From: Chiloscyllium plagiosum
Taxonomy: Eukaryota
Assembly (NCBI RefSeq): GCF_004010195.1
Contig: NC_057753.1
Location: 4,508,900-4,572,899 of the forward strand
Reading direction: 5' to 3'
Length of the DNA: 64,000 nt
Shown here: positions 1-62,384 of the stretch, piece after piece
How the letters are laid out: each line of letters opens with the position of its first letter
How positions within the stretch are numbered: position 1 is the first letter of the stretch
Program-made: the position numbers and the translations under genes
Notes under the pieces: model-generated
What the model saw: the letters and a program-made list of their open reading frames with translations, nothing else
Told to the model about the DNA's origin: nothing
The model's database searches: none

Positions 1-264
1 CCAGCTCAGCACTGTCCCCTTGACTTGTCCTACCTGCCTATCTTCTTTTCCACCTATCCACGCCACCCTCTCCCGCCCCTGACCTATCACCTTCATCCCC
101 TCCCCCACTCACCTATTGTACTCTATTATACTTTCTCCCCCTTCCACCCTCCTCTCATTTATCTCTCCACCTTTCAGGCTCTCTGCCTGTATTCCTGATG
201 AAAGGCTTTTGCCCAAAACGTTGATTTTACTGCTCCTCGGATGCTGCCTGAACTGCTGTGCTCC
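1..264 (+). mobile_element. Penelope-like element (PLE) 3' end, family A, with degenerate hammerhead motif
   Basis: Pyrimidine-rich tail, then CTGATGA-aaggcttttgccc-AAAACGTT (195-222) and GATGCTGCCTGAACTGCTG. Reverse-complement match to the end of the RT/GIY-YIG element at 60008-61873. Confidence 0.8.
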
Positions 265-3968: not shown

Positions 3969-4281
3969 ATTAGATTAGATTACTTACAGTGTGGAAACAG
4001 GCCCTTCAGCCCAACAAGTCCACACCACCCTGCCGAAGCGCCACCCACCCATACCCCTACATTTACCCGTTACCTAACACTACTGACAATTTAGCATGGC
4101 CAATTCACCTAACCTGCACATCTTTGGACTGTGGGAGGAAACCGGAGCACCCGGAGGAAACCCACGCAGACACGGGGAGAACGTGCAAACTCCACACAGT
4201 CAGTCGCCTGAGGCGGGAATTGAACACGGGTCTCTGGCGCTGTGAGGCAGCAGTGCTAACCACTGTGCCACCGTGCCGCCC
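3969..4281 (-). mobile_element. HE1-type tRNA-derived V-SINE, full length
   Basis: Minus-strand head GGGCGGCACGGTGGCACAGTGGTTAGCACTGC, B-box-like GTTCAATTCC, GCTAAATTG core, (TAATC)n tail. Confidence 0.9.
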
Positions 4282-5051
4282 ACGAATAAACCTTTAAAAG
4301 CAAGGTTTCGTGGACCTTATCAAGTCAAAAAGAGATTGAGTAGCAGAACAATTTGATAAGGACTCCAGACAGAAAGAAATCTCACAAAGCGTGTCATGCA
4401 AATACGCTCAAGAAGTAATTTGACAGGGTAGGAAAGCTAAAGGAGATTGAGTTACTGATTACAACACAGACTGGAGAACCAAGTTCAGAGGATTCTGAAT
4501 TGGATGGTCCTCAAATTAAACTGAACAATACGGAAGTTCTCTAAAACTGGGATAAATTATTGAGTTACATTGCAGAGGAAAATTGAAGTGACCTGAAAGA
4601 GTCAGGTCTGAATGGGGAAACATGTGGGAGTAAGCTGCGAAGTACGAAACTACTTAATCATGATGTAGATATAGGAAAAGCTGTTACAATTAAACAACAT
4701 CCTTGTAGACTTGTCACTCTAAAGTTGACCAAGGTTCAAAAAGAGATTGAACGCATGCACTTAGACTATATAACCGAAGTGAGTTACAGTAACTGGAGCT
4801 CACCCATAGTAATGGTGCCAAAGCCAGATGGTACCCAATGGTTATGTGTAGACTATTTCAAAATGAATGCAGTTACACAGTCTGATCCATATCCAATCCC
4901 ACATTTGGAAGACAGGATTGAGAAGGTGGGACAAACTTCATATATTTCTAAGTTCAACTTACTCAAAGGTCACTAGCAGGTACCTTTATCCGAAAGAGCA
5001 AAGACAATTTCGGCTTGTAATACTGAATCGAGTATTCCAATTTAAAGTTAT

Positions 5052-5347
5052 ATTAGATTAAATTACTTACAGTGTGGAAACAGGTCCTTTGGCCCAACAA
5101 GTCCACACCAATCCGCCGAAGCACAACCCACCCAGACCCAGATACATTGACCCCCTTCACCTAACACTACAGACAATTTAGCATGGCCAATTCACCTAAC
5201 TGACATATCTTTGGATTGTGAGAGGAAACCCATACAGACACGGGGAGAATGTGCAAACTTCACACAGTAAGTCACCTGAGGTGGGAATTGAACCCAGATC
5301 TCTGGCACTGTAGGCAGCAGTGCTAACCACTGTGCCACCGTGCCGCC
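5052..5347 (-). mobile_element. HE1-type SINE
   Basis: Same head, core and tail as 3969-4281; inserted in the Gypsy RT. Confidence 0.9.
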
Positions 5348-5884
5348 AACTAAAATGGCCTGCCACATTTCGAAGACTAACCAATAAAGTCATTTCTGGG
5401 TTACCCAGTCTTGTGGTATACATCAATGATCTACTGTTTTTTAGTTACACAAGGAAGTAACATTTGCAGTACTTCTCAGAACCACTTGATCGACTTCAGG
5501 AGACAGACTTGGTGATAAACCCGGCTAAGAGTGAATTTGCCAAAACCCAGGTCATGTTCCTGGGCAATGTTAACAGACATGGAAGGGTGGCCTGAAGGAA
5601 TGTGAAAACAAAGATCATTGGGGAATTTCCCATACCATACACAAAGAGAGCAATACTACGATTCCTGGGATTGAGTAGGCTCTATTGCAAATTTGTGCTA
5701 CATTTTAGCAGCTTGTTTGCTCCATTCACCAACTTATCGAAGAAGTGCAGAAACATTCAGTGTACTGAGAAATGTCAGAAGGCATTTGACAGCCTCAAAG
5801 CTTCTTACCCACTGCCCCAGTTTTAGTCACATCTAATTACACAAAGCCATTCAAGGTTAATGCGAATGATGTGAGCATCACAGG

Positions 5885-11488: not shown

Positions 11489-11529
11489 AGTGTTTACAGA
11501 CGAACTGTAGCTGAGGGGTTCTCTATAGA

Positions 11530-11618
11530 GCTGTAAATGTGTTGCTGGGAAAGCGCAGCAGGTCAGGCAGCATCCAGGGAACAGGAGAATCGATGTTTCA
11601 GACATGAGCCCTTCTTCA
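11530..11618 (-). mobile_element. Mini PLE-derived insertion (family A) with hammerhead motif
   Basis: Reverse complement reads CTGAAGA-AGGGCTCATGTCT-GAAACATC-GATTCTCC; duplication GGGTTCTCTATAGA at 11516-11529 and 11619-11632. Confidence 0.85.
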
Positions 11619-12574
11619 GGGTTCTCTATAGATTCAGGTTTGATTGTTACAAGTAGCTGACTGGTTTTTTACAAGTAACCTGTTTTGGTGGAAAAAATCT
11701 TCTGTCTGCTAACATCTGTATAATTGGTTCCCAATAGCCGTACTTCCTGGTGCTCTGAACAAGATACAGAGAGGATACAGGTAATCCATCATCCCTCAGC
11801 AACAAAACCCACATTAAGCCTGAAGAAACCAGCTTTTTTCCCCTTCAGCACAGTAGCAGTAAGCTGTGATTTTTCACTGACCTATCAGCAATCGTTTTAG
11901 ACAATAAATGACTACCCTCTGTCTCTTGTAAACCAGTGGAAGCAGCTGGAGAAGGAAGGCAGAGAAACAGTGTTCTTATAATTACAAGAAACTTGAGAAT
12001 AATCTCATTAACACCTATGAGTAGGCATCATTGAACAGCCTTTTTCTTTTTCTGCAGGCCATAACATCCATGTTTTGTTTTAGCAGTCTGTGCCTGTATA
12101 AATCTGTTCATGCACAGCGGCGTTAAAATGAGGTTTAGAGTTTTAATAAGCAATTTTATATGTCAACGGTTTATAAGGTCTTTCTCTGCACCTAGAGACG
12201 AATCACTTCTACTAAATAGTAACGATTGTTCAGTAGCAAAGCCTAGTTTGCACTTTCCGACAATCTAAATTTGCAACAGGGATAAACGGGGCAATTTTCG
12301 CTAACTTTTTTAAAAAATCAACGGCTTTTGTGATGTTTGTGGGCATAGTGTTCATTGATTTCCAGCACGCTACCTCACTGGCATAAACTGAATGAGGTTT
12401 TAGAACAGTCAACAATGATTACACGGTCACCATTCGGCCAGATTTGAAATTTTATTATTTTGCTGAATTCAAATTTCACTGCACAGGAATTGAACTTATT
12501 GCTCCTTTAGGTTAAGCTAAAAATCTGAACTATATTCCCATTGATGTCACAACTAACCCGCCGCCATGTTAAGA

Positions 12575-15360: not shown

Positions 15361-15674
15361 AATTCCTTTCTTACCATAGAAGAACCTTCACTTATTTGAC
15401 ATGTTTATGTCCTTCGTGCATTCTTTCTGTCATCCTCACCACTTGCCTTCCCCCCACTTATTTTTGTGTTACCCACTTTATTTACATTAATCTATAATCC
15501 TATGATAACTAACAATGACAAACGATTATATATGTTCAGAGATTCCCCAACGCAAAAACAATTAAACGTTTTTTCAAATCGATTGAAAAGTGTCCAATTC
15601 TGTTTCTACTTTTAAATTGCTACATTTTGTGAAGAGTTTCAGACATCACCAGTAAGTTACAGCATGATCTTAGC

Positions 15675-15881
15675 TGAAAATGTGTTGCTGGAAAAGCGCA
15701 GCAGGTCAGGCAGCATCCAGGGAACAGGAGAATCGACGTTTCGGACATAAGCCCCTGAAGAAGGGCTTATGCCCGAAACGTCGATTCTCCTGTTCCCTGG
15801 ATGCTGCCTGACCTGCTGCGCTTTTCCAGCAACACATTTTCAGCTCTGATCTCCAGCATCTGCAGACCTCACTTTCTCCTC
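15675..15881. mobile_element. Young fold-back PLE-derived mini-element (family A) with target duplication
   Basis: 83-bp arms 15672-15754 / 15763-15845 (one mismatch seen), 8-nt loop CTGAAGAA; CAGCATGATCTTAGC at 15660-15674 and 15882-15896. Confidence 0.9.
15755..15790 (+). ncRNA. Minimal type-I hammerhead ribozyme core (5' strand of helix I lost)
   Basis: CUGAAGA-A-GGGC(UUAU)GCCC-GAAA-CG-UC; predicted cleavage after 15782. Confidence 0.65.
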
Positions 15882-16126
15882 CAGCATGATCTTAGCAGTG
15901 CAGGTCATGCCGAAAATGTTCAATTTTCCATTCTGTCCAATCTAATTCCGTCCAGTGTTGGAAATAAGGTTTAAATGGAAAATTATATCGCATGCTTTTT
16001 TTCCTCTCTCTGACTTGTTCTAATTAATGTCAAAGTTGGTGCAGCGAAACCTGTTTGTTCAAAGGCAGTAAAGCGTATTAATTGTGGTGCTGCCTAATTG
16101 TGTCTCGAGGGTAGTTTACTATGAGG

Positions 16127-16499: not shown

Positions 16500-17680
16500 G
16501 CAATTGTGTGCGGTTTTGGAATTCACATTATAAGAGGAATTCGATTGCATTGGAGAGGATGCAACAGAGATTTAGCAGAATGTTGCCTGGGCTGGACAAC
16601 TTCGGTTATGAAAAGAGATTGGATAGACTTTGGTTGTTTTTGTTCAAGCAGAAAACATTGAAATGGGACATAATTGAGATGAATAAAATGGTCAGCAGTA
16701 TAGATAGGGTAGACAGGGAGGAACTTGGTGGAGAGATCAATCACTTCAAGGTTCAAGGATATCAAGACAGACGCTGGAGTTTAGAAGTGATGTGAAGCAA
16801 AGCTTTTTCACCGAGACAGTAGTGAGAATCTGGAATGGACTGCGTGTAAGGATGATAGAGGCAGAAACCTTCACAACATTTAAGAAGTCTTTAGACACAT
16901 AAGATGCAAAAGCATGCAAGGCTCCTGGGCAAACAGCTGAAAACAGGATTAAAGTAAGTAGTTATTTTTGATGTGCACGGACTCAATGGGCAGTTTTCTG
17001 TGTTGTAGATCTCTACGACTCTATGATGCAAAGCAAAACAAAATGAAATTGATGACAGGGTCAGAACCAGGTGTCACAATCCAAAGATATGGGGTCGGCC
17101 ATTTATGATTGAGATGAAAATAAATTTCTTCACCAAGACCATGGGTGAATCTATGGAATCCTCTGCCACAGAAACAGTTGAGACCGAAGTATTCCAAGAA
17201 CCAGATGAATAATGTTCTTACAGCTAACAGGGGTGAAGGCTATGGGGAAAAGGTGGTAACTGTGTACTAAGTCAGAAGATCAGTCATGATCATAATAGAG
17301 ATATACAATCCCTACAGTGTGGAAACAGGCCGTTCGGCCCAACAAGACCAAACCGATCCTCCAAAGAGTAACCCATCCAGACCCATTCCCCTACCCTAAT
17401 ACCCTACACATCCCTGAACACTGTGGGCAATTTAGCATGGCAAATCCACCCGAACCTGCACATCTTTGTGAATGTGGGTGGAAACCATAGCACCCGGAGG
17501 AAAGCTACAGAAAATGTGCAAATTCCACACAGACAGTCGCCCAAGGTTAAAATTGAACCTTGGTTCCTGGTGCTGTGAGTCAGCAGTGCTAACACTGAGC
17601 CACCCCGCCGCCTCCATAATGAATGAGCAGGCTTGAAGGGATCCATGCGCAGCTGCTGGCTCTATTTTCTATAGAACACA
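16500..17680 (+). mobile_element. CR1 LINE 3' fragments with nested HE1 SINE (-, ~17300-17611)
   Basis: ALERMQQRFSRMLPGL peptide; SINE core and head on -. Confidence 0.75.
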
Positions 17681-19771: not shown

Positions 19772-22062
19772 GTGAGAAGTGTGGGTGCTGGACAAAGAGC
19801 GTGGCTGGGAAAACCAGATCAAACAGCATCAGAGGAGAAGAGTAGTTGACGTTTCAGGTCAGAACCGTTTGTCAGCATGGATGGAGGGGAACGGGTTGCG
19901 ATATAAATAGAGGGAGTGGGGTGGGGCTGGGGGAAAGGGGAGTACAATGGCGATAGGTTTTTGCAGGTAGGAGGTGGTTGTGAGTGGTCAGTGGGAAGGG
20001 TGGAGCAGATAGGTGGAAGGAAGATGGTTAGGTAGGGTCAGGTTAAGGGGGTGGAGTGGGTCGCGAAAGCTAGGCCTGGGACAATGTGGAGTGGGGGCGT
20101 GGTGAGATTTGGAAACTGGTGTTAAGGCTGTCTAGTTATATGTTCCCAAGGTGGAAGATGGGGTGTTCTTCCTCTAGTTTGTGTTTGAACATGTGTTGAC
20201 GGTGTTGGAGGCCCAGGATGGGCATATCATCGGGAAAGTGGGAGAGGGAGTTGAAATGTATAGAAACCGGAAGGTGGGGTTTATTGGAACATGCAAAACA
20301 TATAGGCTCGCTGAACCGGTTCCTGAGTTTGGACTCGGTTTCTCCGATGTAGAGGAGAACACATTGGGAGCAACCAATGCAATGAATCAGGTTAGAGGAA
20401 ATGCATGTGAATTTTTGCCAGACGTGGAATTATTGTCTGGTGCTTTGGATTAACGTGAGGGAAGCAGGTATGAGGGCAGGTCTTGCACTTCCTGCGTCTG
20501 CAGGGGAAGGTTCCAGATGTGGTCAAGGGGTTGGTGGAGCGTGGATCTAATGAGGGAGTCACTGAGGGAATAGTCCCTGTGAAAACTGGATGGAGTGGGG
20601 AGGGAAATATCATTTTGGTGGTGAAGTCAAGCTGCAGGTGGCAAAGGTGGTGGAGCAACAAGCGTTAGACTTGGAGACAATGGGGTGGAATGTAGGACCA
20701 GGCGGACTATTAGATTAGATTCCCTACAATGTGGAAATAGACCCTTCCGCCCAACAAGTCCACACTGACCTGGCGAAGACCAAGCCACCCAGACCCATTT
20801 TCCTACTTTCACCCAGACTAATGCACCTAACACTACTGGCAATTTAGCCTGGCCAATTCACCTAACCTGCACATCTTTGGGGTGTGGGAGGAAACCGGAG
20901 CACCTGGAGGAAACCCACGCAGACACAGGGAGAACGTGCAAACCCCACACAGACAGTTGCCTGAGGCGGGACTTGAACCCCTGTCCCTGGTGCTGTGAGG
21001 CAGCAGTGCTAACCACTGTGCCACCACGCTGCCCTAATATCTTTGTTGTGGTTGTGGAGAGGAGTGTTTGTTTGAGGGTAGAGGTGCGGGTAGTAGAGAT
21101 GTGGATGAGGACATTGTTGCTCAGAGTGGAGGGGAAATGGTGCTCCTTCAGGTCGAAGAACAACTGGGATGTCCTGGAGTGGAATTGCTCACCCTGAGAG
21201 CAGATACATTGGAGGCTGAGGAATTGGGAGTATTGGATGACATTTCTGCAGGGTAGTTGGTGGGAGGAGTTGTAATCAAGGTACCTATTGGAGTCAATGG
21301 GTTAGTTGCCAGAGATGTCGAGGCCCAGGAAGCAGAGGGAGGTGTCAGAGGTGGTCCAGGTGAATTTCAGGTCAGGGTGGAAGGTGCGGTGCACACCTCC
21401 CTCCTCACTTCCATCCAAGGTCCCAAAGTACCATTCCAAGCCCAGCAGAGATTAACGTGCATTTCCTCTAACCAGATAGGCTGCATTTGTTGCTCACAAT
21501 CTGGTCTCCTCTACATCAGAGAAACCAAGCACAAACTTGGCGACTGGTTCCACCCCACCTTTGTGGTTGTCATCCATTTCAACTTCACCTCCCCCTCCCC
21601 TGACGACATATCCATCCTGGGCCTCCTCCACTGTCAACACAAGGCCACGCACAAACTGAGGGAAGAACACCTCATCTTCCACCTCGGTAACAGACAGCCA
21701 TACAGCCTCAACATGGAATTCACCAGCTTCCAAATCTTCCCGCCCCACCCCACCTCATCTCAGGCCCAGCCCTCCGTCTTCACCACACCCCAAGTCCTTA
21801 ACCTGATCCTATCTGTCCATCTTCCTTCCCACCTGTCTGCTCCGCCCTTTCCACTGACAAATCACAGCCTCGCTCTACCTGCACCTACCTGTCATCATCG
21901 CAACCATCTTTTCCCTTGCCCTACCCACCTCCCTGTATTTATTTCGCAGTCCCTTCCCCTCCCCAGTCCAGATGAAAGATTCTGACCTGAAATGTCAATT
22001 CCCCCTCTCCTCTGATGCTGCTTGACCTGCTGCATTTTTTCCAGCTCCACTCTTTATCCACT
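19772..22062. mobile_element. PLE family A in inverted configuration (- 19772-21385; + 21386-22062)
   Basis: GTFPCRRRKCKTC and LYIRETK GIY-YIG motifs on opposite strands; each arm ends in a degenerate hammerhead (~19848-19878 -, ~21968-21997 +). Confidence 0.85.
20709..21033 (-). mobile_element. HE1-type SINE nested in the PLE
   Basis: (ATTAG)n tail and tRNA-like head on -. Confidence 0.9.
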
Positions 22063-23506
22063 CTACTACATTTTTCTGCCTCATATTAAATTTGGGACGT
22101 TAGAACGTATTTTAAAATGTGTTTACATGACCTAAACATATTTTTGACAATAACCTCTTGCATATTTGTTTGAGTGAGTTTAATTTGCAATAAACTAATT
22201 GTTTGTTGCTGTTGATGAGTAAAAGCTCCTGGCTGACATGTGACTGGCACTGAATCAGACACAGTAGAAAATCAGCATCGTTGGCCAGAACAGGGCTTCG
22301 CTTCATTCAAACCTTATCATAATTCGTGGGTCAGGATGAGAAAGGGATTGATGCCCCCCTCAACCTCTGATGCAATGGTCTCAAGAATGCTTTCACATTC
22401 CATCTTCTGAAAGGTTTGTTCTACTTTCACAGTCAATGTGCATCAAAGCCCATCCCTCAACGGCCTGACAAAGTTGGCAGTCAGCTGTCTCCGTGAATCA
22501 CTGCAGTTGGTATGCTGTAGGTCTTTTCTCAGCTTTAAGCAAACTCACTACAAGCTCAACTTTGCTATTTTGTGAATGTTTCTGATCAATGGTCAAATCG
22601 GGTGCCCGATTACACCAGCAGAGAGATCACTCTGCTTCTAATTATCTCATGCAGTTCCAATCAATGCTTTGAGAGCCTGCTTCGTACGTGTTTATCTTCA
22701 AGTTCTGTCCTCCCTTCCTATTCCATGTGAATTACAATCACTTGTTCCAGCTTTGAGGAACTGTAGAACATCTTAAAACTGCACGTGATGCATATTAATG
22801 TTCTACTGAATGGTGTATTTCTTGAAACGCTGCAATACTTGTGTCTAGAGGCATCCTACTGCTTAGGAATCTCATGATGTTGACTCAGTGGGTATTCAGT
22901 TAATACTGACATTGTTCCAAGTTCAGGTTGGTGAGAGGCTTGGATAGGACCTTGCAGTTTGTGGTGTTCTCATGGCATTGTAATCTCCAAGCCTTAGGAT
23001 CTTTCTATGCATCATATTTATGCACATTCTAAAATTACTGGTTATCTCTGTCCCAGACTTGTTTATCTCTAAGTACTGCTTGAATTCTTTTGCCACTATA
23101 TTCCTTTGCTACCTCTATCAAATTCCATTACTCTGATATTTTCTACGTCCCAGTTTTCAAATGCTATCACATTCGGAGTGTTAATTAATTCCTTTTGTAA
23201 ATTTAGTTGTATGTAAAGTTTTACAACTACTCCTACTGTTAGCACTGTTTAACAAGTTGCGAATAATCTATTTCTTTAATGATATTTTTAGAGCTATTAC
23301 TTCTTAATATGGCGAATAACTTCAAAGAAACATCTGATTACTACAAAATAATGTTAGCTGTTGTTTTCATAGCTGCACAATAACTTCGGTTGACAGTCTC
23401 ATGAACTGAGATTTTCACCCATTGTTGTAACATGATGTCGTTTACCTAATAGGACAACATCCTTTCACTAATGAGGCTGCAATGAATCACTTGTCATACT
23501 TTAAAC

Positions 23507-23816
23507 GGCACGGTGGCCCAGTGGTTAGCACTGCTGCCTCACAGCGCCTGTAGACCCGGGTTCAATTCCCGACTCAGGCGACTGACTGTGTGGAGTTTGC
23601 ACATTCTCCCCGTGTCTGCGTGGGTTTCCTCCGGGTGCTCCGGTTTCCTCCCACAGTCCAAAGATGTGCGGGTCAGGTGAATTGGCTATGCTAAATTGCC
23701 CGTAGTGATAGGTTAAAGGGGTAAAGGTAGGGGTATGGGTGGGTTGCGCTTCGGCGGGTCGGTGTGGACTTGTTGGGCCGAAGGGCCTGTTTCCACACTG
23801 TAAGTAATCTAATCTA
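23507..23816 (+). mobile_element. HE1-type SINE, young
   Basis: GGCACGGTGGCCCAGTGGTTAGCACTGCTGCCTCAC...GGTTCAATTCC...GTAATCTAATCT; CpGs retained. Confidence 0.9.
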
Positions 23817-23999
23817 AATAACTTGCGTCTATCCATAGACATCTTCTGATCGAATGGTCTTTAATGGTTGTTTGTATAGAGCCTCCCGTTCACCTTGGAG
23901 TAGCCCTATTCAAAGGTACCGTTATGTTTCAGATTATGCTGGAGCAGACTGTTTCATTCTGCTGAACACTTGGCCGTCTTTCAAATATGGGCAGCCCTT

Positions 24000-26355: not shown

Positions 26356-27835
26356 AATCATATTCTATGACGTCCAGATGGCTGACCACTGTTACAATCA
26401 CTGCAGGTCGGATCCAGGATATATGAGTGAGGAATTCTTGCCAGGATGTCCTGCAGCTGAGACTTTTGACTTCCAGCCACTTCACCCCTCTTCCTTTGTG
26501 CCAGTGTAAGGTATGACTGCAACCAGCTTTCCACTGACATTAGAAAATGGTGGTGAATTCCCTCCTTGAACTGCTGCAAACTCTTTCTTGATAAAACCAT
26601 ACTTGGTCAAACTCTGTCATCATGTCAAGAGCAGTCCACATTACCTCACCTCTGGGATTCACCTCCTTTGTGCATGTCTGAATCTAAGCTGTAATAGATC
26701 TAGAGTTCAGTGACCCTGTCAGTGAGTAGTTGCTGAGAACATCACTTCAGAGATGACTGACATTTAGCCAATATGGCAGTAATTGGCTGGATTAGATTTT
26801 CATCGTATTTTTATATAAATGACAACCCTGGGCAATTTTTCACATTGTCAGATAGACGTCGGTGCTGTCGCTGTACTGACATCAGTTTGGTCAGGACCAC
26901 AGTTAGCTCTGAAAAGCACAAGTCTTCAGCACTACTTTCAGTATGCTATCAGGCACCATGGCATTTGTCGTAAGCAATGCCCAGATATGTGGGCTGAAAC
27001 GTGTCATACTCCATTTACACAGTCAGAAACTTGGCAGAAAAAGTCCAGTGTAGATTCATAGAAACATCCATATAGAAGAGGCCCTTCACTCCATCAAGTC
27101 TGTAATAAACCATCGACATCAATACCACTTCCCAGCATCGACTCATAGCCTTAAATGTTATGACATTTTAAGTTCTTTTTTTTTACTTTTTCTTGTCTTT
27201 TCTATCACCAGGCAGTTTGTATGTTGAATGGTGCGCTCAGAATTTGAACAGTTGTAATGACCATCATCTCACTGTGGAGGTAGGTTGAGGCTGAAAGCTC
27301 CAAATGCAAATCCAGCAGAAGACTATATGTACTGGTAGTGTAGGAGAATCATGGCTGTAGTCACAACAGAGAATAGCTTGGACAACTGTCGAAGGGAATG
27401 ACTGATTAAGGCAATTTGACCACCCAGTTTGTCTATCTTTAAAATTACCAAGCAACTGAATTGTGCAAATCCATTTACAGATACACATTATTAAACTGTT
27501 TGCAATTTGCATGCCATAGGATTCAGTCTAATAAAAGTATTGCTTAAAACGTAAGTGTACACGAATTGAGTGAAATGCAAAATAGATCGCTAAACCGTGT
27601 GTTCACGACATAACACTCGGTAATATTTTTGATTAAACGATCAATTGCTAATCTCTTGCGTACAGCTACACCAGTTCAACAAATTAATAAATCAATCAAC
27701 AAAATTACATTGGAAATACCCTTTAACAGGCTCCTAGAAAGAGTTTTGTTCTAATTGCTGTTAAGAAGCCCCTTGAAATGTGGCAATAGCCTGACTACTC
27801 AAAGCCTGCTCACAATCTACAAGAAACATATCAGG

Positions 27836-28384
27836 AGTTGCTGTGGTTCTGTTCGCCGAGCTGGAAGTTTTTGTTGCGAACGTTTCGTCCCCTGGCAAGG
27901 CGACATCATCAGTGCTTGGGAGCCTCCTGCGAAGCACTTCTTTGATGTTTCCTCCGGTGTTTATAGTGGTCTGTCCCTGCCGCTTCCGGTTGTCAGTTTC
28001 AGCTGTCCGCTGTAGTGGTTGGTATATTGGGTCCAGGTCGATGTGTTTGTTGATGGAGTTTGTGGATGAATGCCATGCCTCTAGGAATTCCCTGGCTGTC
28101 CTCTGTCTGGCTTGCCCTATGATAGTAGTGTTGTCCCAGTCGAATTCATGTTGCTTGTTGTCTGCGTGTGTGGCTACTAAGGATAGCTGGTCGTGTCGTT
28201 TCGTGGCTAGTTGATCTTCATGTATGCGGATTGTTAGCTGTCTTCCTGTTTGTCCTGTATAGTGTTTTGTGCAGTCCTTGCATGGTATTTTGTACACTAC
28301 ATTCGTCTTGCTCATTTTGCGTATCGGGTCCTTCGTTCTGGAGAGTTGTTGTCTGAGCGTGGCTGTTGGTTTGTGTGCCATTAT
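27836..28384 (-). mobile_element. PLE GIY-YIG endonuclease fragment with hammerhead, inserted in an older LINE
   Basis: Open 206-aa frame: NVVYKIPCKDCTKHYTGQTGRQL...REFLEAWHS. Confidence 0.9.
27875..27916 (-). ncRNA. Minimal type-I hammerhead ribozyme motif
   Basis: AGCA-CUGAUGA-U-GUCGCC(UUGCCA)GGGGAC-GAAA-CG-UU-CGCA; one mismatch each in helices I and II. Confidence 0.6.
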
Positions 28385-28924
28385 GAGTCACACATATCAG
28401 GAGTGTGATGGATATTCCCCACTTGTTTGGATGAGTCCAGCTCCAACAACACTCAAGAAGCTTGACAGCATCCAGGACAGAGAAGTTTAATTTATTGGCC
28501 CCACTTCCACAAATACCCGCTCCTTCCACCACCAACAGTCAGTAGCAGTAATGTATGCTATCTAAAAGATGTTTTGCAGAAATTCATCAAAGACCCTTAG
28601 ACAGCAAATTCAAGACCATTATCATCTAGGTGGACAAGGGCAGCAGATAACAAACATCACCAACTGCAAGGTCCTCCTAAAGCTACTCACCATCCCAACT
28701 TGGAAACAAATTTGTTGTTCTGTCAGTGTCGCTAGGTGAAATCCTCCAATTCCTTCCCTAATGACATCATGGGCCAACCTAAAGAACACAGAGGGCAGAA
28801 GTTCAAAAAGATAGCGCACCTCTATCTTCTCAAGAGAAATTAGGGATGGGCATTACATGTTGGTCCAATCAATGATGTGCAAATCCTTTGAATGAATGAA
28901 AAGAGGGAGATTTGGGAATTATGA

Positions 28925-30964: not shown

Positions 30965-31077
30965 AAAATTCTGTTGTATCACTTCAGGTGTCACAATTGC
31001 AATTTTATAAAGGTGCAATAAAAGTAATATGCTTCCTTGGAATTTATTCACTCTTTCTTCCTCTGTCTACCTTCCAG

Positions 31078-31979
31078 CTAGTTTACTGGCGATTATGATC
31101 CTGACCCGAGGAAGATGTGGTCTCTCCCGATGCATCACATGGTATCTGGTCTCCATGGCGGTGACGGATCTCCTGGTCATCATCACTGCTGTGCTGCTAA
31201 ACCGTATTCCCGGTGTTTATTTCCCAACTAGTTTCCTGTCAATAACTCCTGTATGCAGCCTCATGATTTCTTTAATCTATGCATCCAGGGACTGCTCTGT
31301 CTGGTTAACAGTTGTTTTTACTGTCGATCGATTTGTGGTTATTTGTTGTCCGAAGCTGAAAGGAAAATATTGCACTGAGAAAATGGCAATCACAATAATA
31401 GCAACTGTTTGCACAGCAGGATGTTTAAAGAGTGTTCCCTGGTACTTTCTGCATGAACCCATTTACATTATGAACAATATCCCGTGGCATTGCAAAATGA
31501 AGGAAATATTTTACACTTCACCAGTATGGGGTGCTTTCGTATGGATTGACTGCATTGTAACCCCATGTCTGCCATTCTTTCTGATCCTTGTTCTTAATGC
31601 CCTGACCGTCAGGTTTATTGTTGCAGCCAACAGAAATCGCAGGAGACTCCGAGCCCAGAACCTCAGAGAGAATCAGAATGACACAGAACTGGAGAACAGG
31701 CAGAGGTCCATCATTTTGCTCTTTGCTGTCTCTGGCAGTTTCATCCTGTTGTGGATGACGTATGTGGTATACTACTTCCACAGACTGCTTTTGCCCCATT
31801 ATCTTATCAATGGCTTCAATGATCCACAATTCATCTTACAAGAAAGTGCAAACATGCTCCAACTGTTGAGTTGCTGCACCAACACATTCATCTACGTGGT
31901 AACTCAGAGAAAGTTCAGACAAGAGTTAAAGATCCTAGTAGAATATCCATTGAATCTACTGGCTAAATTATATAGATAG
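31078..31979 (+). CDS. GPR139-like: GPR139-like class A GPCR, coding exon 2 (323 aa with exon 1)
   Basis: Polypyrimidine acceptor CTTCCAG|; LVSMAVTDLL (TM2 Asp), PVC, FTVDRF, ECL2 Cys, FILLW, CCTNTFIY, stop TAG. The ORF-track start at 31029 is intronic. Confidence 0.9.
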
Positions 31980-32077: not shown

Positions 32078-32729
32078 TAATATTTTTCATTTGTCTTGGC
32101 AGCTGTTGGGAAGAATAATTTCTGCTGGCTTGTTGGCAAAGATCGAGCTATTGTTTCCATAGAACGGGAAAGTGGAAATCCACTAACATATGGATCAAAA
32201 TGAGGAGATTACATCATTACTAATAATTGAAAACAAATTGGCGATATTAGTGTTATCTAGTCCAGATGTACTCCCATGCCATTTGCTGGGTCTCTGCATC
32301 TTCAGAATAAGTAGGAATGATCAGTTATTTGAATCTTCTCATATCACTGCAATGACCCCAGTTGGGGGGAATTCTGCACAAGGTAAATCCCAGAATCAAA
32401 CTGGGCTTCACAAGCTTCGTGATTCATTTTCTGCAATTGGTTAACATGAGGACACATCACACCATATTCATGAGTCCAGAGAAGGTCTTTGCAAAGACCT
32501 TCGATGTATTACACAGAAGAAGAAATAACGGACACAGGAGTTGAATATAGATGTTAATTCGAAACATAGTAACATCAACATCTAAATAAACATTCAACCA
32601 GTTTCCCATAATTACTCACCACAGATATTCACTCCCATTGAACTATCTTCCCATTTCAAATTTTCTTTCCTTTTAACTACTGAAAGCTTTTTTGAATTAT
32701 TTCTTTGAGCGTATTGCCATGAAAAACAT

Positions 32730-34215
32730 TGAAATATAAAAACTAGATGCACAGGCAGACCATTTGGTGCTTCAAGTTTGCTCTGTGATTCTGATGACCA
32801 TGGCTTGAGTGAATGTAGCCCAATCCAATCCCATCCCTTTTCATTCGTCATTCCTGCCATCCCAAGAATCAACCCAGTTAACATTTATGGCACTCATTCC
32901 ATAGTTCATAACAACGGAAGACATAGGAGCACAAATAACACCATTCAGCCCACCGAGTCTGCTCCATTATTCAATCGTGGATGACAAGTTTCTCAACCCC
33001 AATGTCCTGCTTTCTCCCCATAACCCTTGATCCCCTTTACAATCAAGAACCTACCTATCTCCGTCTTAAATATTCTCAATGACCTGGCCTCCCCAACCTT
33101 CTGTGGCAGTGAATTCCATGGAGTCACCACTCTCTGGCTGAAATGTTTTCCTCTTATCTCTGTTCGAAAAGGTCTTCCCTTTACTCTGAGGCTGTGCCCT
33201 CAGGTGATAGTCTCTCCAACCAATAGAAACATCTTCCCAATATCCACTCTGTCCAGGACATTCATTATTTGGTAAGCTTCAATTAAATCTACTCTCATCC
33301 TTCTAAACTCCATCGAATATAGACTCAGAATCCTCCAACTTTCCTCATATGTTAAGCTTTTCATTTCTGGACCTTCTTGTGAATCTCCTTTGAACACACT
33401 CCAAGACCAGTACATCCTTCCTGAGATATGGGGCCCAAACCTCCACACAATACTCCAAATGTGGCCTGACCAGTGCCTTATAGAGCCTCAGAAATACATC
33501 TCTGCTTTTATATTCATGCCACTCGAAATAAGATTAGATTACATTACAGTGTGGAAACAGGCCCTTCGGCCCAACAAATCCACACCAACCCGCCGAAGCA
33601 CAACCCACCCATACCCCTACATTTATCCCTTACCTAACACTACGGGCAATTTAGCATGGCCAATTCACCTGACCTGCACATCTTTGGGCTGTGGGAGGAA
33701 ACTGGAGCACCCGGAGGAAACCCACACAGATACGGGGAGAAGGTGCAAGCTCCACACAGTCAGTCGCCTGAGGCGGGAATTGAACCCGGGTCTCTGGCGC
33801 TGTGAGGCAGCAGTGCTAACCACTGTGCCACCGTGCCACGCATAAACTGTCATCATTGCATTTACATTCCAAATTACTAACTCAACCTACAAGTTTACGT
33901 TGAGAGAACCCGGGACTAGAACTCCCAAGTCTCTTTGCACTTCAGATTTCTGAATTTTCTCCAAATTAGTCCAAATGTCTATTCGACATAGCAAGGTGCA
34001 TGACCTCACATTTTCCCATGTTGTACTCCATCTGCCACTTCTGAAACGACTCTCCTAACCTGTCCAACGCCTTGTGCAGCTTTCCCCCTCGTCAATGCTC
34101 CCAGTCCCTCTGCCTATCTTTGTACCATCTGCAAACTTAGCCAAAATGCCCTCAGTTCCTTCATCGAGATCGTTAATGTATCAGGTGAAAAGTTGTAGTC
34201 CCAACACTGAGCCTT
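32730..34215 (-). mobile_element. CR1/HER1 LINE 3' portion
   Basis: YSMEFRRMRVDLIEAYQI; KFADGTK region ~34130. Confidence 0.85.
33530..33840 (-). mobile_element. HE1-type SINE
   Basis: Near-identical to 3969-4281. Confidence 0.9.
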
Positions 34216-36780
34216 TCCCTGGAGCAGAGGAAGCTGAAAGGTGACCTTTCAGAGGTTTATTAAATCATGAGGAGCACATATAAGATGTACAGCCAATGTC
34301 TTTTCTCCAGAGTCCAAATCTAGAGGGCACAGGTTTAAGGCGAGAGGGGCAAGAGTAAAACAGTGCTGAAGGGCAACAGTTTCACACAGTTCATCCATGG
34401 AATGAACTACCAGAGGAAGTGGCCGAGGTGAGTACAATGATAATGCAAAAGACTGTTGGACATGTATATGGACAGGGAATGTTAACAGGAATACGGGCCA
34501 AATACAGGGATTAGGTCATTTCAGGAAAACTGCTTGGCATGGTGAGTTGGACTGAAGGGTCTTTTTCCATGCTGTACTATCTCTAGTTCCAATCAGATGA
34601 CTAGCTCTCCGAATTACCTAACTTGATTGCCCTGCTCGGTGAAGATGCTTTGCATTGAAATGAACTCTGAAATCTTCTGAACTGAATACAAAACTACATT
34701 CTTTAAGGAATCGACATAAGACAACATTGCCTTAAGATGATTTACTCTGATTATTAAAAATATATCAGAGTCCAAAGGATTCAGCTATGACAACTATAAA
34801 GGAATAAAATAAAATAAAACAATAATCTGTAAAGTACTTGACTGCAATCACATGCTTTCTTGAAACTGACATGTTTAGGCCTCAGTTTCAGACCATATAT
34901 ATAAAAAAAAGTTTGTTGCAAAAAGATTTGACTCACAGAACTAAATGAAATCCATCTGTTTGCATCTATGAATAAAGACGGAATTCCAAATGTGTTATAA
35001 TACAATATACATGTTTCATCACGTCACTCACACCAAAGTTTAAAAGCTGTCTCATAAACATCTTAAGGAAGCTCAAGGGAGCTGGTGTTTTTCTTATTGA
35101 AGTGAAGAAGGACGAGCAGTGATTTGTTAGAGGTGTACGAGATGACGAGAGGCATATATAGAGTGGATAGAGAGAGAGAGAGAGAGACAGAGACATTTTC
35201 CCAGGGTGCAAAATAGCGATCACGAGGGAAGCATAATTTTAAGACAATTGAAGGAAGATTTAGAGATTTCAGATGTTGGTTCGTTACACAGAGAGTGGTG
35301 GGTGCTTGGAATGCACTCCCAGCGGTGGTAATAGAGTCAGGGACATTTCAGCGACTCTTGGATAAGCAAACGCATGTTGGTGAAACGTAAGGTATTTAAG
35401 TTCGTTTCATCTTAGACTAGGATAAAAGGTCAGAGACCCAAAGGGACTGTGCTGTGCTGTATTGTTCTATGTTTTCTGTTTTCAAATAATATAGAGATTT
35501 GATTGCACCTAAATTGGAAGGGGAATAATATACTGGCAGGGAGATTTGCAAGAGCTGCTAGGGAGGATTTAAACTAGTAAGGTGGGGGGAGGGGGGAACC
35601 CAGGGAGATAGTGAGGAAAGAGATCAATCTGAGACTGGTACGGTTGAGAACAGTAGCGAGTCAAACAGTCAGGGCAGGCAGGACAAGGTAGGACTAATAA
35701 ATTAAACTGCATTTATTTCAGAGCAAGGGGCTGAACAGGGAAGGCAGATGATCTCAGGGCATGGTTAGGAACATGGGACTGGGATATCATTGCAATTACA
35801 AAAACATGGGACTGGGATGGGCAGGACTGGCAGCTGAATGTTCCAGGATATAAATGTTACAGTAAGGATAGAAAGGGAAGCAAGAGAGGAGGGGGAGTGG
35901 CGTTTTTGATAAGGGATAGCATTACGGCTGTGCTGAGGGAGCATGTTTCCAGAAATACATCCAGGGAACTGAGAAATAAGAAAGGGATGATCACTTTATT
36001 GGGATTGAATTGTAGACTCGCTAATAGTCAGAGGGAAATTGAAAAACAAACTTGTAAGGAGATCTCAGTTATCTGTAAGAATAACAGGGTGGTTATGGTA
36101 GAGAATTTTAACTTTCCAAACACAGACTGGGACTGCCATAGTGTTAAAGGTTTAGATGGAGAGGAATTTGTTCAGTGCGTACAAGACAATTTTCATATTC
36201 AGTATGTGGATGTACTTACTGGAGAAGGTGCAAAACTTGACCTACTCTTGGGAAATAAGGCAGGGCAGATGACTGAGGTGTCAGTGGGGAGCTCTTTGGG
36301 GCCAACAACGATAATTCTATTAATTTCAAAATAGTGATAGAAAAGGATCAGTTCTAAATTGGAGAAAGGCCAATTTTGACTATATTAGGCAAGAGCTAGT
36401 TGGGGGCAGATGTTCACAGATAAATTACGTCTGGAAAATGGGAAGCCTTCAGAAATGAGATAACGAGAATCCAGAGCAAGTATATTCCTGTCAGGGTGGC
36501 AGGAAAGGTTGGTAGGTATAGGGACTGCTGGATGACTAAAGAAAGTGAAGGTTTGGTTAAGAAAAAGAAGAAAGCATATGTAAGGTACAGACAGGATAGA
36601 TCGAGTGAATCCTGAGAAGAGTATAAAGGCAGTAGGAGTATACTTAAGAGGGAAATCATGAGGACAAAAAGGGGACATGAGATAGCTTTGACAAATAGAG
36701 GTAAGGAGAATCCAAAGGGTTTTTACAAATATATTAAAGACAAAAGGGTAACTAGGGAGAGAATAGAGCCCCTCAAAGAT
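34216..36780 (+). mobile_element. CR1 fragments: two 3' ends, then ORF1 end / ORF2 endonuclease (35495-36780)
   Basis: NFNFPNTDW...QYVD...LDLLLGN (35897-36334); (GA)n microsatellite ~35170. Confidence 0.8.
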
Positions 36781-37028
36781 CAGAGCTGAAAATGTGTTGC
36801 TGGAAAAGCGCAGCAGGTCAGGCAGCATCCAAGGAGCAGGAGAATCGACGTTTCGGGCATGAGCCCTTCTTCAGGAATCTGCAGTCCTCACTTTCTCCTC
36901 GAAGATTTTAACCTACTGTGAATCCTCTTGCAAGGATGCCTTCCTTGAAGAAGCTCTCTTCCTCCCTCTACACCTTGGATGCTGGCTGACCTGCTGCGCT
37001 TTACCAGCAACACATTTTCAGCTCTGAT
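36778..37028. mobile_element. Fold-back PLE family-A insertion ending at the gap
   Basis: ATCAGAGCTGAAAATGTGTTGCTGG...CATCCAAGG arm, with its reverse complement at ~36973-37028. Confidence 0.85.
36841..36880 (-). ncRNA. Best-preserved minimal type-I hammerhead ribozyme
   Basis: AGAUUC-CUGAAGA-A-GGGC(UCAU)GCCC-GAAA-CG-UC^GAUUCU; helix I 5 of 6 pairs, helix II 4 bp. Confidence 0.75.
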
Positions 37029-37528
37029 NNNNNNNNNNNNNNNNNNNNNNNNNNNNNNNNNNNNNNNNNNNNNNNNNNNNNNNNNNNNNNNNNNNNNNNN
37101 NNNNNNNNNNNNNNNNNNNNNNNNNNNNNNNNNNNNNNNNNNNNNNNNNNNNNNNNNNNNNNNNNNNNNNNNNNNNNNNNNNNNNNNNNNNNNNNNNNNN
37201 NNNNNNNNNNNNNNNNNNNNNNNNNNNNNNNNNNNNNNNNNNNNNNNNNNNNNNNNNNNNNNNNNNNNNNNNNNNNNNNNNNNNNNNNNNNNNNNNNNNN
37301 NNNNNNNNNNNNNNNNNNNNNNNNNNNNNNNNNNNNNNNNNNNNNNNNNNNNNNNNNNNNNNNNNNNNNNNNNNNNNNNNNNNNNNNNNNNNNNNNNNNN
37401 NNNNNNNNNNNNNNNNNNNNNNNNNNNNNNNNNNNNNNNNNNNNNNNNNNNNNNNNNNNNNNNNNNNNNNNNNNNNNNNNNNNNNNNNNNNNNNNNNNNN
37501 NNNNNNNNNNNNNNNNNNNNNNNNNNNN
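37029..37528. other. Assembly gap (500 N)
   Basis: Exactly 500 N, a fixed-size scaffolding gap. Confidence 1.
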
Positions 37529-45458: not shown

Positions 45459-45740
45459 GGGCAGCACAGTGGTTAGCACTGCTACCTCACTGCCAGAGAC
45501 CTGGGTTCAATTCCCATCCTGGGTGACTCTGGAGTTTGCATGTTCTCCCCATGTCTGCGTGGATTTCCTCCAGTTTCCTCCCACAGTCCAAAAAAGTGCA
45601 GGTTGTGAACTGACCATGCTAAATTGCCCCGAGTGTTAGGGGTAAATGTAGGGGAATGGGTCTGGGTGGGTTGTGTTTTGGTGGGTTGGTGTGGACTTGT
45701 TGGGATGAAGGGCCTGTTTCCACACTAAGTAATCTAATCT
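45459..45740 (+). mobile_element. HE1-type SINE
   Basis: GGGCAGCACAGTGGTTAGCACTGC head, GCTAAATTG core, TAATCTAATCT tail. Confidence 0.85.
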
Positions 45741-46586
45741 GAAGTCTGATGTTGCAACTCATTACCCCCACATGAGCAGAGATCTTGCTGTCCATGTTCT
45801 CTGACACAGCAGGATAGGCAACACTAGTTCCAGATTGACTACATGGAGAGCCTGAACTCAATGGAACAGTGATAGATCGTATCACAGATAGCACGTTTAC
45901 AGAGTTGGTCACAGCACCACTCAGGGTTACACTGAAATGGAGTTAGTCACCAGGAAGTCTCAAGTGCATCAAGAGTGGGGGGTGCTGGAAAAAGCACAGG
46001 TTAGACAGAGCAGAAAGTGTTCTGCTTTGGTGGGTTGGTGTGGACTTGTTGGGATGAAGGGCCTGTTTCCACACTAAGTAATCTAATCTGAAGTCTGATG
46101 TTGCAACGCATTACCCCCACATGAGCAGAGATCTTGCTGTCCATGCTCTGACACAGCAGGATAGGCAACACTAGTCTCAGTGGTATAGAAATTGCTGGAA
46201 AATTTGGGATCCGATTAATCAACACACAGGCAGGAATTGATCCAAACAGTCAGTGAAAATTTGCCGGAAGCAGATCCTGTCTAGGCAAAAGTGAGGACTG
46301 GAGATCAGTTGAAGGGTGTGGGGTGCTGGAAAAGCACAGCAGGTCAAGCAGCATCTGAGGAACAGGAGAATAAATGTTTCAGCCCAAAATGTCAACACTT
46401 TCTGCTCTGTCTAACCTGTGCTTTTTCCAGCACCCCCCACTCTTGATGCACTTGAGACTTCCTGGTGACTAACTCCATTTCAGTGTAACCCTGAGTGGTG
46501 CTGTGACCAACTCTGTAAACGTGCTATCTGTGATACGATCTATCACTGCTCCATTGAGTTCAGGCTCTCCATGTAGTCAATCTGGA
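45677..46586. repeat. Complex duplication-inversion A-B(inv)-A-C-B
   Basis: A: 45677-45828 ~ 46026-46175; 45829-46021 is the reverse complement of 46394-46586. Confidence 0.9.
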
Positions 46587-47029
46587 GCTGCCATTAAACA
46601 TGCCCCATCAGTCACCAGTGTCCCAGAGTTTTGCAAAGTGCAGCAGGAGCATTTCATGGGGCTGAGCTCAGCTGCCAGTTTGAACCTGATCAAGTACCAT
46701 CGGTCCAGGAACTCATTGAATGAAATGTCCATTTTGTTGCAAACAAGATTTCTAAAACTTACAAGGATGAAAGTACCTTATAATCCATCTCCCTTCAGAT
46801 GCTATTCAATCTTTACACCGGGTTCCTGATCTTTCAGGCCTACACTAGTCCTATCACCTCCAGGGGTCTCCAGATGCAACTCTGAGCCAATTCAGCTACT
46901 GGTTCAGTAGCTTCTGCTACTGTTTGCACCTAAGTTCACTTTGCTGTGCTGCTGCTGTTCCTGATGTAGAGGCCTCCTCACCTGTCTGAGTCTGGAACCA
47001 GGAACCATTCCTGAATAGTGGACAGCAAG

Positions 47030-60007: not shown

Positions 60008-61873
60008 TGACTGCAGATCATGGAAACCAGATTCTGGATCAGTGGTGCTGGAAAAGCACAGCAGTTCAGGCAGCATCCGAGGAGCAGGAAAATCCATGTT
60101 TCAGGCAAAAGCCCTTATTCAGGAATGCAGGCAGAGAGCCTGAATAGTAGAGAGATAAGGGGGTGGGGAGAAAGTAGCCAAGAGTACAATAGGTGAGTGG
60201 GGGAGGGGATCAAGGTGATGGATCGGGGGAGGCTGGAGTGGATAGGTGGAAAAGATAGGCAGGTAGGACAAGTCATGGGGACGGTGCTGAGCTGGAAGTT
60301 TGGAACTGGGGTAAGGTGGGGAAGGGGAAATGAGGAAACTGGTGAAGTCCACATTGATGCCCTGGGGTTGAAGTGTTCCAAGGCAGATGAGGTGTTCTTC
60401 CTCCAGGCATCTGGTGAGGGAGCGGTGGTGAAGGAGGCCCAGGACTTCTATGTCCTCTGCAGAGTGGGAAGGGGAGTTGAAATGTTGGGCCACAGGGGCG
60501 GTGTAGTTGATTGGTGTGGGTATCCTGGAGATGTTCCCTAAAGTGCTCTGCTAGGAGGCGTCCAGTCTCTCCAATGTAGAGGAGACCACATCGGGAGCAA
60601 TGGATACAATAAATGATATTGGTGTATGCGCAGGTAAAACTTTGTATGTGGAAGGCTCCTTTGAGGCCTTGGATGGAGGTGTGGGTGCAGGTTTTGCAGT
60701 TCTGGCAGGGGAAGGTGCCAGGATGAGGGTGGGTTGTAGGGGGGCATGGACCTGACCAGGTAGTCACGGAGGGAATGGTCTTTGTGGAAGGCGGAGAGGG
60801 GTGGGGAAGGAAATATATCCCTGGTGGTGGGGTCTGTTTGGAGGTGGCGGAAATGTCGGTGGATGATCTGGTTTGTGAAGGTTGGGTGGAAGGTGAGCAC
60901 CAGGGGCATTCTGTCCTTGTTATGGTTGGTGGGGTCGGGTCTGGGGACAGGTGTGGGATGTGGACGAGATGGGTTGGAGGGCATCTTTAACCACATGGGA
61001 AGGGAAATTGCGGTCTCTAAAGAAGGAGGCCATCTGGTGTTCTGTGGTGGAACCGCTCCTCCTGGGAGCAGATACAGCAGAGGAATTTGGAATATGGGAT
61101 GTCATTTTTGCAGGAGGTAGGGTGGGAAGAGGTGTAATCCAGGTAGCTGTGGGAGTCGGTGGCTTTGTTTTTAAAAAAAAAGTCAGTGTCAAGTTGGTTG
61201 TCATTAATGGAGATGGAGAGGTCCAGGAAGGGGAGGGAGGTGTCAGATGGTCCAGGTAAATTTAAGGGCAGGATGGAATGTGTTGAAGTTGAACTGCTCA
61301 ACCTCCTCACGGGAGCACGAGGTGGCGCCAATGCAGTCATCAATGTAGCTGAGGAGGAGGTGGGGAGTGGTGCCGGTGTAATTACGGAAGATGGACTGTT
61401 CTATGTTGCCAACAAAAGACAGGCATAGCTGGGGCCCATACATCTGCCCATGGCTACCCCTTTGGTCTGGAGGAAGTGGGAGGATTTGAAGGAGAAATTA
61501 AGGGAGTTCAGCCAAATGAGTCAGTGGAAGGGTACTGTTAGGGCTGTCAGGAGAGGAAGAAATGGAGGGCTTGGAGGCCCTGGTCATGGCAGATGGAGGT
61601 GTAGAGGATTGGATATCCATGGTGAAGATGAGGTGTTGAGGGCTGGGGAAACGGGAGTCTTGGAGGGTGTGGGTGGTTTCTCGAACGTATGTGGGGAGTT
61701 CCTGGAGTAGGGAATAGGACAGTGTCAAGGTAGGTAGAGATGAGTTCAGTGGGGCAGGAGCATGCTGAGACAATGGGTCGGCCAGGGTGGTCAGGCTTGT
61801 GGATCTTGGGAAGGAGGTAGAACCGGGCAGTGCGGAGTTCCTGGACTATGAGGTTGGAAGCTGTGGGTGGGAA
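60008..61873 (-). mobile_element. Long PLE family-A element (RT + GIY-YIG), frameshifted
   Basis: FYLLPKIHK..PGRPIVS, FTMDIQS, YIDD, PFLDL, IIYCIHCSRCGLLYIGETGR; degenerate hammerhead at ~60092-60125. Confidence 0.92.
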
Positions 61874-61983: not shown

Positions 61984-62133
61984 TGTTTGGAATCCCAGTT
62001 GAACAACACAGCAGATGGGGTGCCAGACTCAACCACATTCAAAAGGCAGTAGCTCCAGAAGAACAACTCATAAATGTATCAGCTTGGACTGAACTCCTGA
62101 ATGACTCCGGGTTGGAAACAAACCCACTGTCAT
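61984..62133 (+). CDS. Candidate next TPX2-like exon (3' end uncertain)
   Basis: TTTTGTCCTTGAACAG| acceptor in phase with 59666; VFGIPVEQHSRWGARLNH...EEQLINVSAWTELL weakly resembles TPX2 VDFHFRTDERIK...EVNFTSEL. Confidence 0.5.
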
Positions 62134-62135
62134 GT

Positions 62136-62300
62136 GAGGAGAAAGTGAGGACTGCAGACACTGGAGATCAGAGCTGAAAATGTGTTGCTGGAAAAGCGCA
62201 GCAGGTCAGGCAGCATCCAAGGAGCAGGTGAATCGACGTTACGGGCATGAGCCCTTCTTCAGGGCTTATGAAGAATGGCTCATGCCCGAAACATCGACTC
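62136..62300. mobile_element. Young family-A mini-element with two inverted hammerhead motifs
   Basis: GAATCGACGTTACGGGCATGAGCCCTTCTTCA-gggctta-TGAAGAATGGCTCATGCCCGAAACATCGACTC. Confidence 0.85.
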
Positions 62301-62384
62301 TGGATGACAGTGGGGTATGTAGGGGGGGGGTGTCAATGCAGGTGAGTGGCATTGGTGGGGGTTGAAGTGGTAAACATGACAGTT

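Follow-up and report, generated by a model that had tools for sequence, protein, structure and literature searches.

Within the window, that is, the whole stretch of 64,000 nucleotides from Chiloscyllium plagiosum analysed here, the feature at 15660..15896 could be read directly from the sequence as a 207-bp insert with 83-bp inverted arms and a 15-bp flanking duplication, in agreement with the initial annotation. The insert proper (15675-15881, 207 bp) lies between two identical 15-mers (Table 1), and positions in the pseudo-LTR (pLTR) are counted throughout from the C of the CUGA core, which is position 0 and window position 15755. The two arms (15672-15754 and 15763-15845) differ at a single one of 83 positions and, when extended to 15666 and 15851, agree at 86 of 89; their first three bases are common to the left duplication, the last three bases of which also fit the element as a microhomology at the short start site. 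A single C at the arm-arm junction (15754) belongs to both arms, and the DNA fold of the hairpin reaches -115.1 kcal/mol (z = -23), a stability equalled by none of 200 shuffles. In one contig of one run (X16), which comes from another organism and whose flanks differ by about 7%, position 15657 is joined straight to 15880, at bases 728 and 729 of its own record; this contig is thus without 222 bp (the insert and one duplication copy) and represents the orthologous empty site. In the DNA run X15 the left flank is not covered. The recent mobilisation supposed at the outset is borne out, and the 207-base hairpin is a real, young insertion.

Table 1. Features of the insert and related pLTR copies in the window
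Feature	Positions	Strand	Basis
Left target-site duplication copy, 15 bp	15660..15674	+	Identical 15-mer and empty site
Inverted short arm, pLTR +8 to +90, tailless	15672..15754	-	82/83 complementary to 15763-15845
Sense arm, pLTR -1 to +126 including tail	15754..15881	+	
Hairpin loop CTGAAGAA	15755..15762	+	
Minimal type I hammerhead core, predicted cut after 15782	15755..15782	+	Hand annotation against the available text of PMC4209133
One-sided 36-nt 'tail' between two preferred 3' ends	15846..15881	+	Bimodal 3' ends; definition in the available text of PMC8557442 and PMC11167929
Right target-site duplication copy, 15 bp	15882..15896	+	Identical 15-mer
Solo short arm, about -2 to +91, own duplication, no hairpin	11527..11621	-	
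Complex copy: inverted tail and ORF-start sequence, then short arm from the -4 A with a preceding G; ends at assembly gap	36777..37028	-	
Tail arm and short inverted piece	62136..62300	-	

The minimal hammerhead motif reported for the loop region was recovered by hand annotation, with CUGAAGA, an extra A, a 4-bp helix II (15763-66/15771-74), GAA, the palindromic ACGU and C17, so that the core, the extra base after A9, the G10.1-C11.1 pair and the palindromic 15.2-16.2 of minimal type I hammerheads are all present. The helix I of 4-5 bp is absent here, its 5' strand being replaced by the inverted arm, and in intact pLTR copies it comprises four positions, one of them U-U. Since the 5' strand of helix I is lost, self-cleavage of the copy at 15660..15896 appears unlikely from its sequence. 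The hammerhead model search proposed initially gave no match in Rfam: no hammerhead was found at gathering score in the window, nor at E<=10 on the insert or on an intact pLTR. Sub-threshold Rfam microRNA-hairpin models on the stem (E<=10) were treated as mere shape matches. In addition, the start of an intact pLTR folded as RNA no more stably than its shuffles (z -0.08), and a two-copy cofold formed no hammerhead dimer. The view that the hairpin apex is the ribozyme core needs to be divided: the apex does adjoin the core, because the arms end there, but the predicted cut (after +27) lies 28 nt downstream of the apex and the 5' strand of helix I is missing.

The three sites initially listed as near-identical relatives of the insert share the arm, but none is a second full hairpin (Table 1). 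The copy at 62125-62310 is flanked by an 11-bp inverted repeat, not by a direct duplication. Assembly gaps often begin at an inverted arm or inside long copies (37029-37528 in the window, and many loci elsewhere), so that hairpins and full-length elements are probably under-assembled. Older Penelope-like fragments occur at 60011-61101 (-), 21257-22060 (+), 27764-28387 (-) and 1-262 (+); the first two carry a cysteine linker and a GIY-YIG-like end, and the third shows a different GIY-YIG type, which indicates at least two Penelope-like element (PLE) lineages in the window. Beside these, two 196-bp stretches (45826-46021 / 46394-46589), inverted with respect to each other, 372 bp apart and 99% complementary, contain both host DNA and a portion of an older pLTR copy; the pair looks like a recent local inversion-duplication. 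Direct duplications surround short inserts at 14086-14173/14249-14336 (88 bp, 100%) and 30282-30431/30820-30969 (150 bp, 99%), the latter with a further, inverted partner of 81 bp at 32169-32249. SINE-like copies of about 310 bp, 75-93% alike and belonging to one abundant family, are found at 3970-4280, 5050-5350, 17300-17612, 20709-21030, 23506-23817, 33526-33847 and 45464-45740. Finally, a 322-codon stop-free frame at 31011-31976 (+) reads like what we take to be a single-exon seven-transmembrane receptor.

The Penelope-like origin proposed for the insert is well founded, since natural copies join the pLTR to a reverse transcriptase (RT) and a GIY-YIG-like end. These copies are preceded by a pyrimidine-rich 3' region and extend beyond +126 into an open frame; RT motifs adjoin the pLTR at L107, an ORF start and an endonuclease end occur with it at L119, and at L223 a natural 535-aa frame comprising RT, cysteine linker and GIY-YIG-like end runs into the pLTR. 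The L223 RT matched Pfam RVT_1 (E 6.8e-7), the only Pfam match, and the GIY-YIG call in this frame was made by eye, as was that of the C-x4-C-x2-C linker, seen both in the L223 frame and at window 60276-60986. The parent is an endonuclease-bearing Penelope-like element, and by the definition given in the accessible part of PMC8557442 the linker sequence suggests the Neptune clade. No intact full-length parent was found among 10 long-frame candidates, nine of which contain gaps, the tenth being the partial 535-aa frame of L223; a 3.5-kb spacing at C6 was rejected as a full unit, as it consists of two separate rearranged stubs. As for abundance, the arm 31-mer has 88,080 exact matches and the hammerhead 36-mer 28,555, against only 11 occurrences of the exact junction of the hairpin at 15660..15896. 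Upstream of the hammerhead, a pyrimidine tract that closes with AG (pLTR about -45 to -28 in L063, L119 and L126) has the look of a splice acceptor; arm 5' ends show no accumulation there. Short head-to-tail dimers were also observed, with a second pLTR attached to the ORF start, in many cases at the -4 A (L103, L104, L108, L109, L111, L118, L123, L124, L127, L129); they resemble the outcome of template jumps made at the RNA 5' end, and partial tandems, that is, new pLTRs, may originate in this way.

For an unbiased sample of insertions we took, on contig 1, the 100 matches of the downstream 31-mer that were listed first, 50 on each strand, and nine more from the stretches retrieved; this gave 109 arms in 90 insertions. 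All come from a single 3-Mb chromosome end, in a gapped assembly from which hairpins may be lost. Head-to-head insertions numbered 43, solo ones 38, and nine were at gaps; the head-to-head share was alike (33/67) in the stretch with both strands fully listed. Arm 3' ends were bimodal, 61 of the 109 falling at +83..+97, 46 at +120..+133 and two elsewhere. The ends therefore cluster at preferred boundaries, and the random-length truncation that had been named as the outcome speaking against the initial reading is not what the copies display. A short arm was joined to a tail arm in 37 of 39 scorable pairs, when 45% would be expected from the solo frequencies (p 3e-11); a pair was scorable with both ends at a preferred site, and four further pairs had one end elsewhere. 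Among these 37 pairs, 18 were non-nested, the short arm reaching at least 8 nt further 5' than the tail arm and in some cases 50-300 nt further, so that neither arm could have been copied from the other; this suggests two cDNAs, each primed separately. Clean hairpins like the copy at 15660..15896, their 5' ends both at -7..+14, made up 21 of the 90 insertions, or roughly 17,000 genome-wide by rough extrapolation from one chromosome end of a gapped assembly. The commonest duplication length was 15 (15 of the 35 detected); note that the duplication finder was strict and, missing ends blurred by microhomology, gave a detection in only 35 of 80 rows.

Such pairs could also come from a single-strand fold-back: one cDNA would turn back on itself at helix II and be its own template, or an antisense RNA would prime itself as described in the available text of PMC3846280, and trimming of one arm by endonuclease or repair would then leave the one-sided tail. 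Short snap-back pieces are indeed common at the junctions, antisense self-priming accounts for palindromic junctions (PMC3846280, in the part accessible), mirrored variants (see below) fit any single-template origin, and the copy at 15660..15896 is nested and could arise in this way. However, 18 of the 37 pairs are not nested, some of them by 50-300 nt, and with these antisense self-priming is compatible only given very large loops. Of the 11 exact copies, five carry the loop on the arm without a tail. The short arm has its end at the site used by solo short insertions, and both the solo arms and the G signature discussed below would be left unexplained. We consequently regard a fold-back origin as quite unlikely.

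The initial annotation saw in the insert a non-autonomous family of retrozyme or SINE type, and a hairpin transcribed as such and mobilised in trans would agree with several results of the DNA search with the 207-mer: among the best 40 of 324 candidates scored, about 40 loci match it nearly full length at 85-99%, their lengths cluster at about 200-227 bp, and 11 copies have exactly the same junction. Nevertheless, many different junctions were found among 29 distinct loci of these matches, and the 11 exact-junction copies carry the tail on the loop-bearing arm in six cases and on the other arm in five. Over 74 two-armed loci (32 top matches and 42 from the unbiased sample), the arms of each locus agree at the subfamily-diagnostic columns (60/65, 54/56, 64/65, 58/68 and 62/65), the first of these values being compared with about 50% expected (p 2e-13), and at CpG column 25 the decayed base occurs in one arm only in 9 of 9 pairs. 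Numerous sites are unmirrored in two top loci (L015 and L022), the probable cause being alignment of a neighbouring copy; both loci were kept, which works against the de novo reading. Since subfamily variants are mirrored in both arms and CpG decay is not, hairpins form anew at insertion, with both arms derived from the same template, on several subfamily backgrounds, and not homogenised since. A self-copying hairpin would hand on its asymmetries and its junction, and the hairpins here do not, so that there is no inherited family: no single structure with one fixed junction and fixed arm asymmetries descends from a master copy. Moreover, the copies form a continuum with solo and asymmetric ones, and helix I and the flanking cis-sequence are lost. 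Head-to-tail tandem units, each with a hammerhead, are not seen either, the insert being a single head-to-head one and the sampled copies solo or inverted, which goes against a retrozyme. Altogether, the self-copying family fails on junctions, loop orientation and mirrored variants; it is already largely refuted, and we give it very little probability. A G-to-A change at +10 recurs on the loop-carrying arm (L010, L011, L017, L018), as if the single-stranded cDNA end had been damaged.

The 5' ends, counted for 100 arms after nine abutting gaps were dropped, lie at -6..-1 (6 nt) in 39 cases, at -6..+14 in 65, and further upstream in 23. The native sequence preceding CUGA is TCATTC, with an A at -4, and presumably fits a polymerase II initiator with the -4 A as its first base. 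In total, 5,033 copies start at the -4 A after a non-native base, and 9,206 keep the native sequence to -8. Over the first 100 matches listed, the base preceding the -4 A is G in 68, compared with 28.5% expected, and in copies beginning one base further in the preceding base is G in 15 of 100; 5,386 copies begin one base after the -4 A, where microhomology blurs the true end. At the arm-arm junctions read by eye (loci L172-L201), G was present in 10 of 13, and in four of these the partner arm does not supply it as template. A second family, whose tail differs, has the same -4 A start in 20 of 20 loci examined, and there G exceeds A by 58 to 42 before the -4 A (45% expected, p 0.005), a modest excess. 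An initiator-type promoter in the pLTR is reported in the available text of PMC2377424 and PMC3846280, and according to the accessible part of PMC11702581 an extra G is a cap signature at the 5' junctions of full-length L1 insertions. From sequence, then, the arm 5' boundary is likely a run-off at a capped RNA start. In the single-cell RNA run X20, which consists of poly(A) reads, 2,099 reads fell on the element, on both strands, with no pile-up of starts, because reads through genomic copies dominate; their loose ends before 15754 are native upstream sequence. The RNA run X21 had zero reads on the element.

Two other accounts of this boundary must be weighed. Twin priming may hold while the boundary reflects an RT stop or RNA processing at the 5' edge of the folded hammerhead, the G being an untemplated C addition or a selection for target microhomology. 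Indeed, helix I begins with the -4 A, many of the extra G's can also be read as microhomology because they coincide with target or partner-arm sequence, the RNA reads revealed no start site, and an RT adding C at any blunt end would give G as well. Yet on its way from 3' to 5' an RT would stall where it enters the structure (+28..+31), a stretch that holds only 5 of the 100 ends, the G excess is specific to the -4 start (68/100 vs 15/100), and the motif fits an initiator, so that a boundary set at the hammerhead edge seems unlikely to us. It could further be imagined that hammerhead self-cleavage makes the template end where the hairpin folds, as the apex lies within the ribozyme and 5 of 100 ends are at +28..+33. 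The predicted cut, however, is downstream of the apex and is read through by both arms, a single end in 100 falls exactly at +28, and cleavage was dispensable in the experiments described in the available text of PMC11167929; we find this account scarcely credible, and the ribozyme is likely a passenger whose cleavage does not set the boundary.

We thus return to twin priming with a capped-start boundary, and consider it probable that the head-to-head copies of pLTR ends come from one abortive insertion, in which both nicked strands are primed at two fixed internal sites and the cDNAs extend toward the capped RNA 5' end before the hammerhead core. The process would begin with an abundant parent having RT and GIY-YIG, whose pLTR carries the hammerhead and continues into the ORF, and the element RNA would begin at the A of the initiator-like TCATTCC, 4 nt before the CUGA core. 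As the duplication and the in vitro data in the accessible part of PMC11167929 suggest, a protein dimer would nick both strands about 15 bp apart. One 3' end is primed near +126 and the other near +90, almost never at the same site, a pattern seen in the copies for which coordinated priming would be the mechanism. In the 5' pLTR, the RT would have only 90-130 nt of template, run off the cap and often add a base opposite it; in such events both cDNAs would run off the capped start at -4 or halt shortly before. The cDNA ends would then be joined by microhomology or after a short snap-back on helix II, which would place the apex beside the core. For the copy at 15660..15896, the sense arm would be the first cDNA, primed at the tail and reaching -1, and the inverted short arm the second, reaching +8, with one C shared. 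Priming in the 3' pLTR would give the longer, randomly truncated minority. We lean slightly further, towards the idea that the stubs record integration directly: a dimeric RT-endonuclease with a 15-bp stagger and coordinated priming, one subunit per fixed RNA site, most events misfiring on the 5' pLTR, in a capped transcript whose first base is also that of the hammerhead.

Similar processes are known in part. The initial annotation suggested that such a family may not have been described in sharks, but an inverted copy plus tail is already published for this class: the available text of PMC8557442 and PMC3846280 describes, for EN+ PLEs (Penelope/Poseidon, Neptune, Naiad), an insertion unit made of a pLTR, an adjacent inverted 5'-truncated copy and a one-sided 30-40 bp tail. 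The copies here have the features of such units, namely the pLTR of an element with RT and C-terminal GIY-YIG, a head-to-head inverted 5'-truncated copy, a one-sided 36-nt tail, a short duplication, a palindromic junction and a pLTR hammerhead. Unlike those units, the insert keeps on each side no more than the last 90-126 nt, hairpins of this kind number about 17,000 (a rough extrapolation), and the 5' boundary is sharply preferred. In the accessible text of PMC8557442, the origin of tandem or inverted pLTRs and of the one-sided tail is still called undefined. The closest biochemical parallel is PAc, the Poseidon of Anolis, for which the available part of PMC11167929 reports that this Penelope-class protein cuts and extends both target strands, that two adjacent internal RNA start sites bound the tail, that uncleaved RNA serves as substrate, that ORF-side sequence is needed and that a dimer is predicted. 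That work, the only in vitro study, deals neither with inverted genomic copies nor with the RNA 5' end, and its data do not reproduce the strict one-site-per-strand pairing, as no start-site difference was seen between strands; here, unlike in PAc, the two sites are used one per strand, and the parent has a Neptune-like linker.

L1 twin priming, in the accessible part of PMC11702581, is alike in that a second RT is primed by the reciprocal target end, the 5' part is inverted, the duplication is discrete and an extra G occurs. The two L1 cDNAs copy adjacent, nearly non-overlapping parts of the RNA, whereas both cDNAs here copy the same stretch from fixed sites, which gives the hairpin. The hammerhead itself resembles the PLE minimal type I hammerheads of PMC4209133 (available text) in core, extra base before helix II, G-C closing pair and palindromic helix III half; the short helix I known from them is present in intact copies, but the copy at 15660..15896 is without its 5' strand and is buried in the 83-bp stem. 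Dual hammerhead motifs on opposite strands are already noted in the accessible part of PMC4209133. The non-LTR retrozymes, in the available text of bioRxiv 10.64898/2026.07.22.740005, are likewise PLE pLTR-derived, non-coding and equipped with a type I hammerhead, but they are head-to-tail tandems with a hammerhead in every unit, unlike the single head-to-head insert described here. Twin priming, one-site-per-strand pairing and a capped-start boundary were not found for Penelope-like elements in the literature searched, from which subscription papers, figures and some supplements were excluded; the coordinated pairing and the capped-start boundary may already be in print.

As the stub carries no element sequence from before the start or beyond the tail, its remobilisation is improbable, and it was likely dead on arrival. 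The insert is probably dead debris of a known kind and not a new ribozyme-carrying element; as ordinary debris of a known class, it does not merit annotation as a new SINE, MITE, retrozyme or microRNA hairpin. What it offers is mechanistic insight, since from its many copies a testable model of the insertion of these elements can be drawn. If the stubs do record integration directly, this account would replace the self-priming model for the inverted ends of the class, the tail, the hairpin and the extreme truncation would be explained in one step, and a promoter would have been mapped from DNA alone. The near-strict pairing of short and tail arms, the non-nested arms and the initiator G provide three concrete predictions for the PAc assay. 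In addition, some 17,000 near-perfect hairpins of 80-100 bp in one genome, by rough extrapolation, could matter as candidate sources of double-stranded RNA and as assembly breakpoints.
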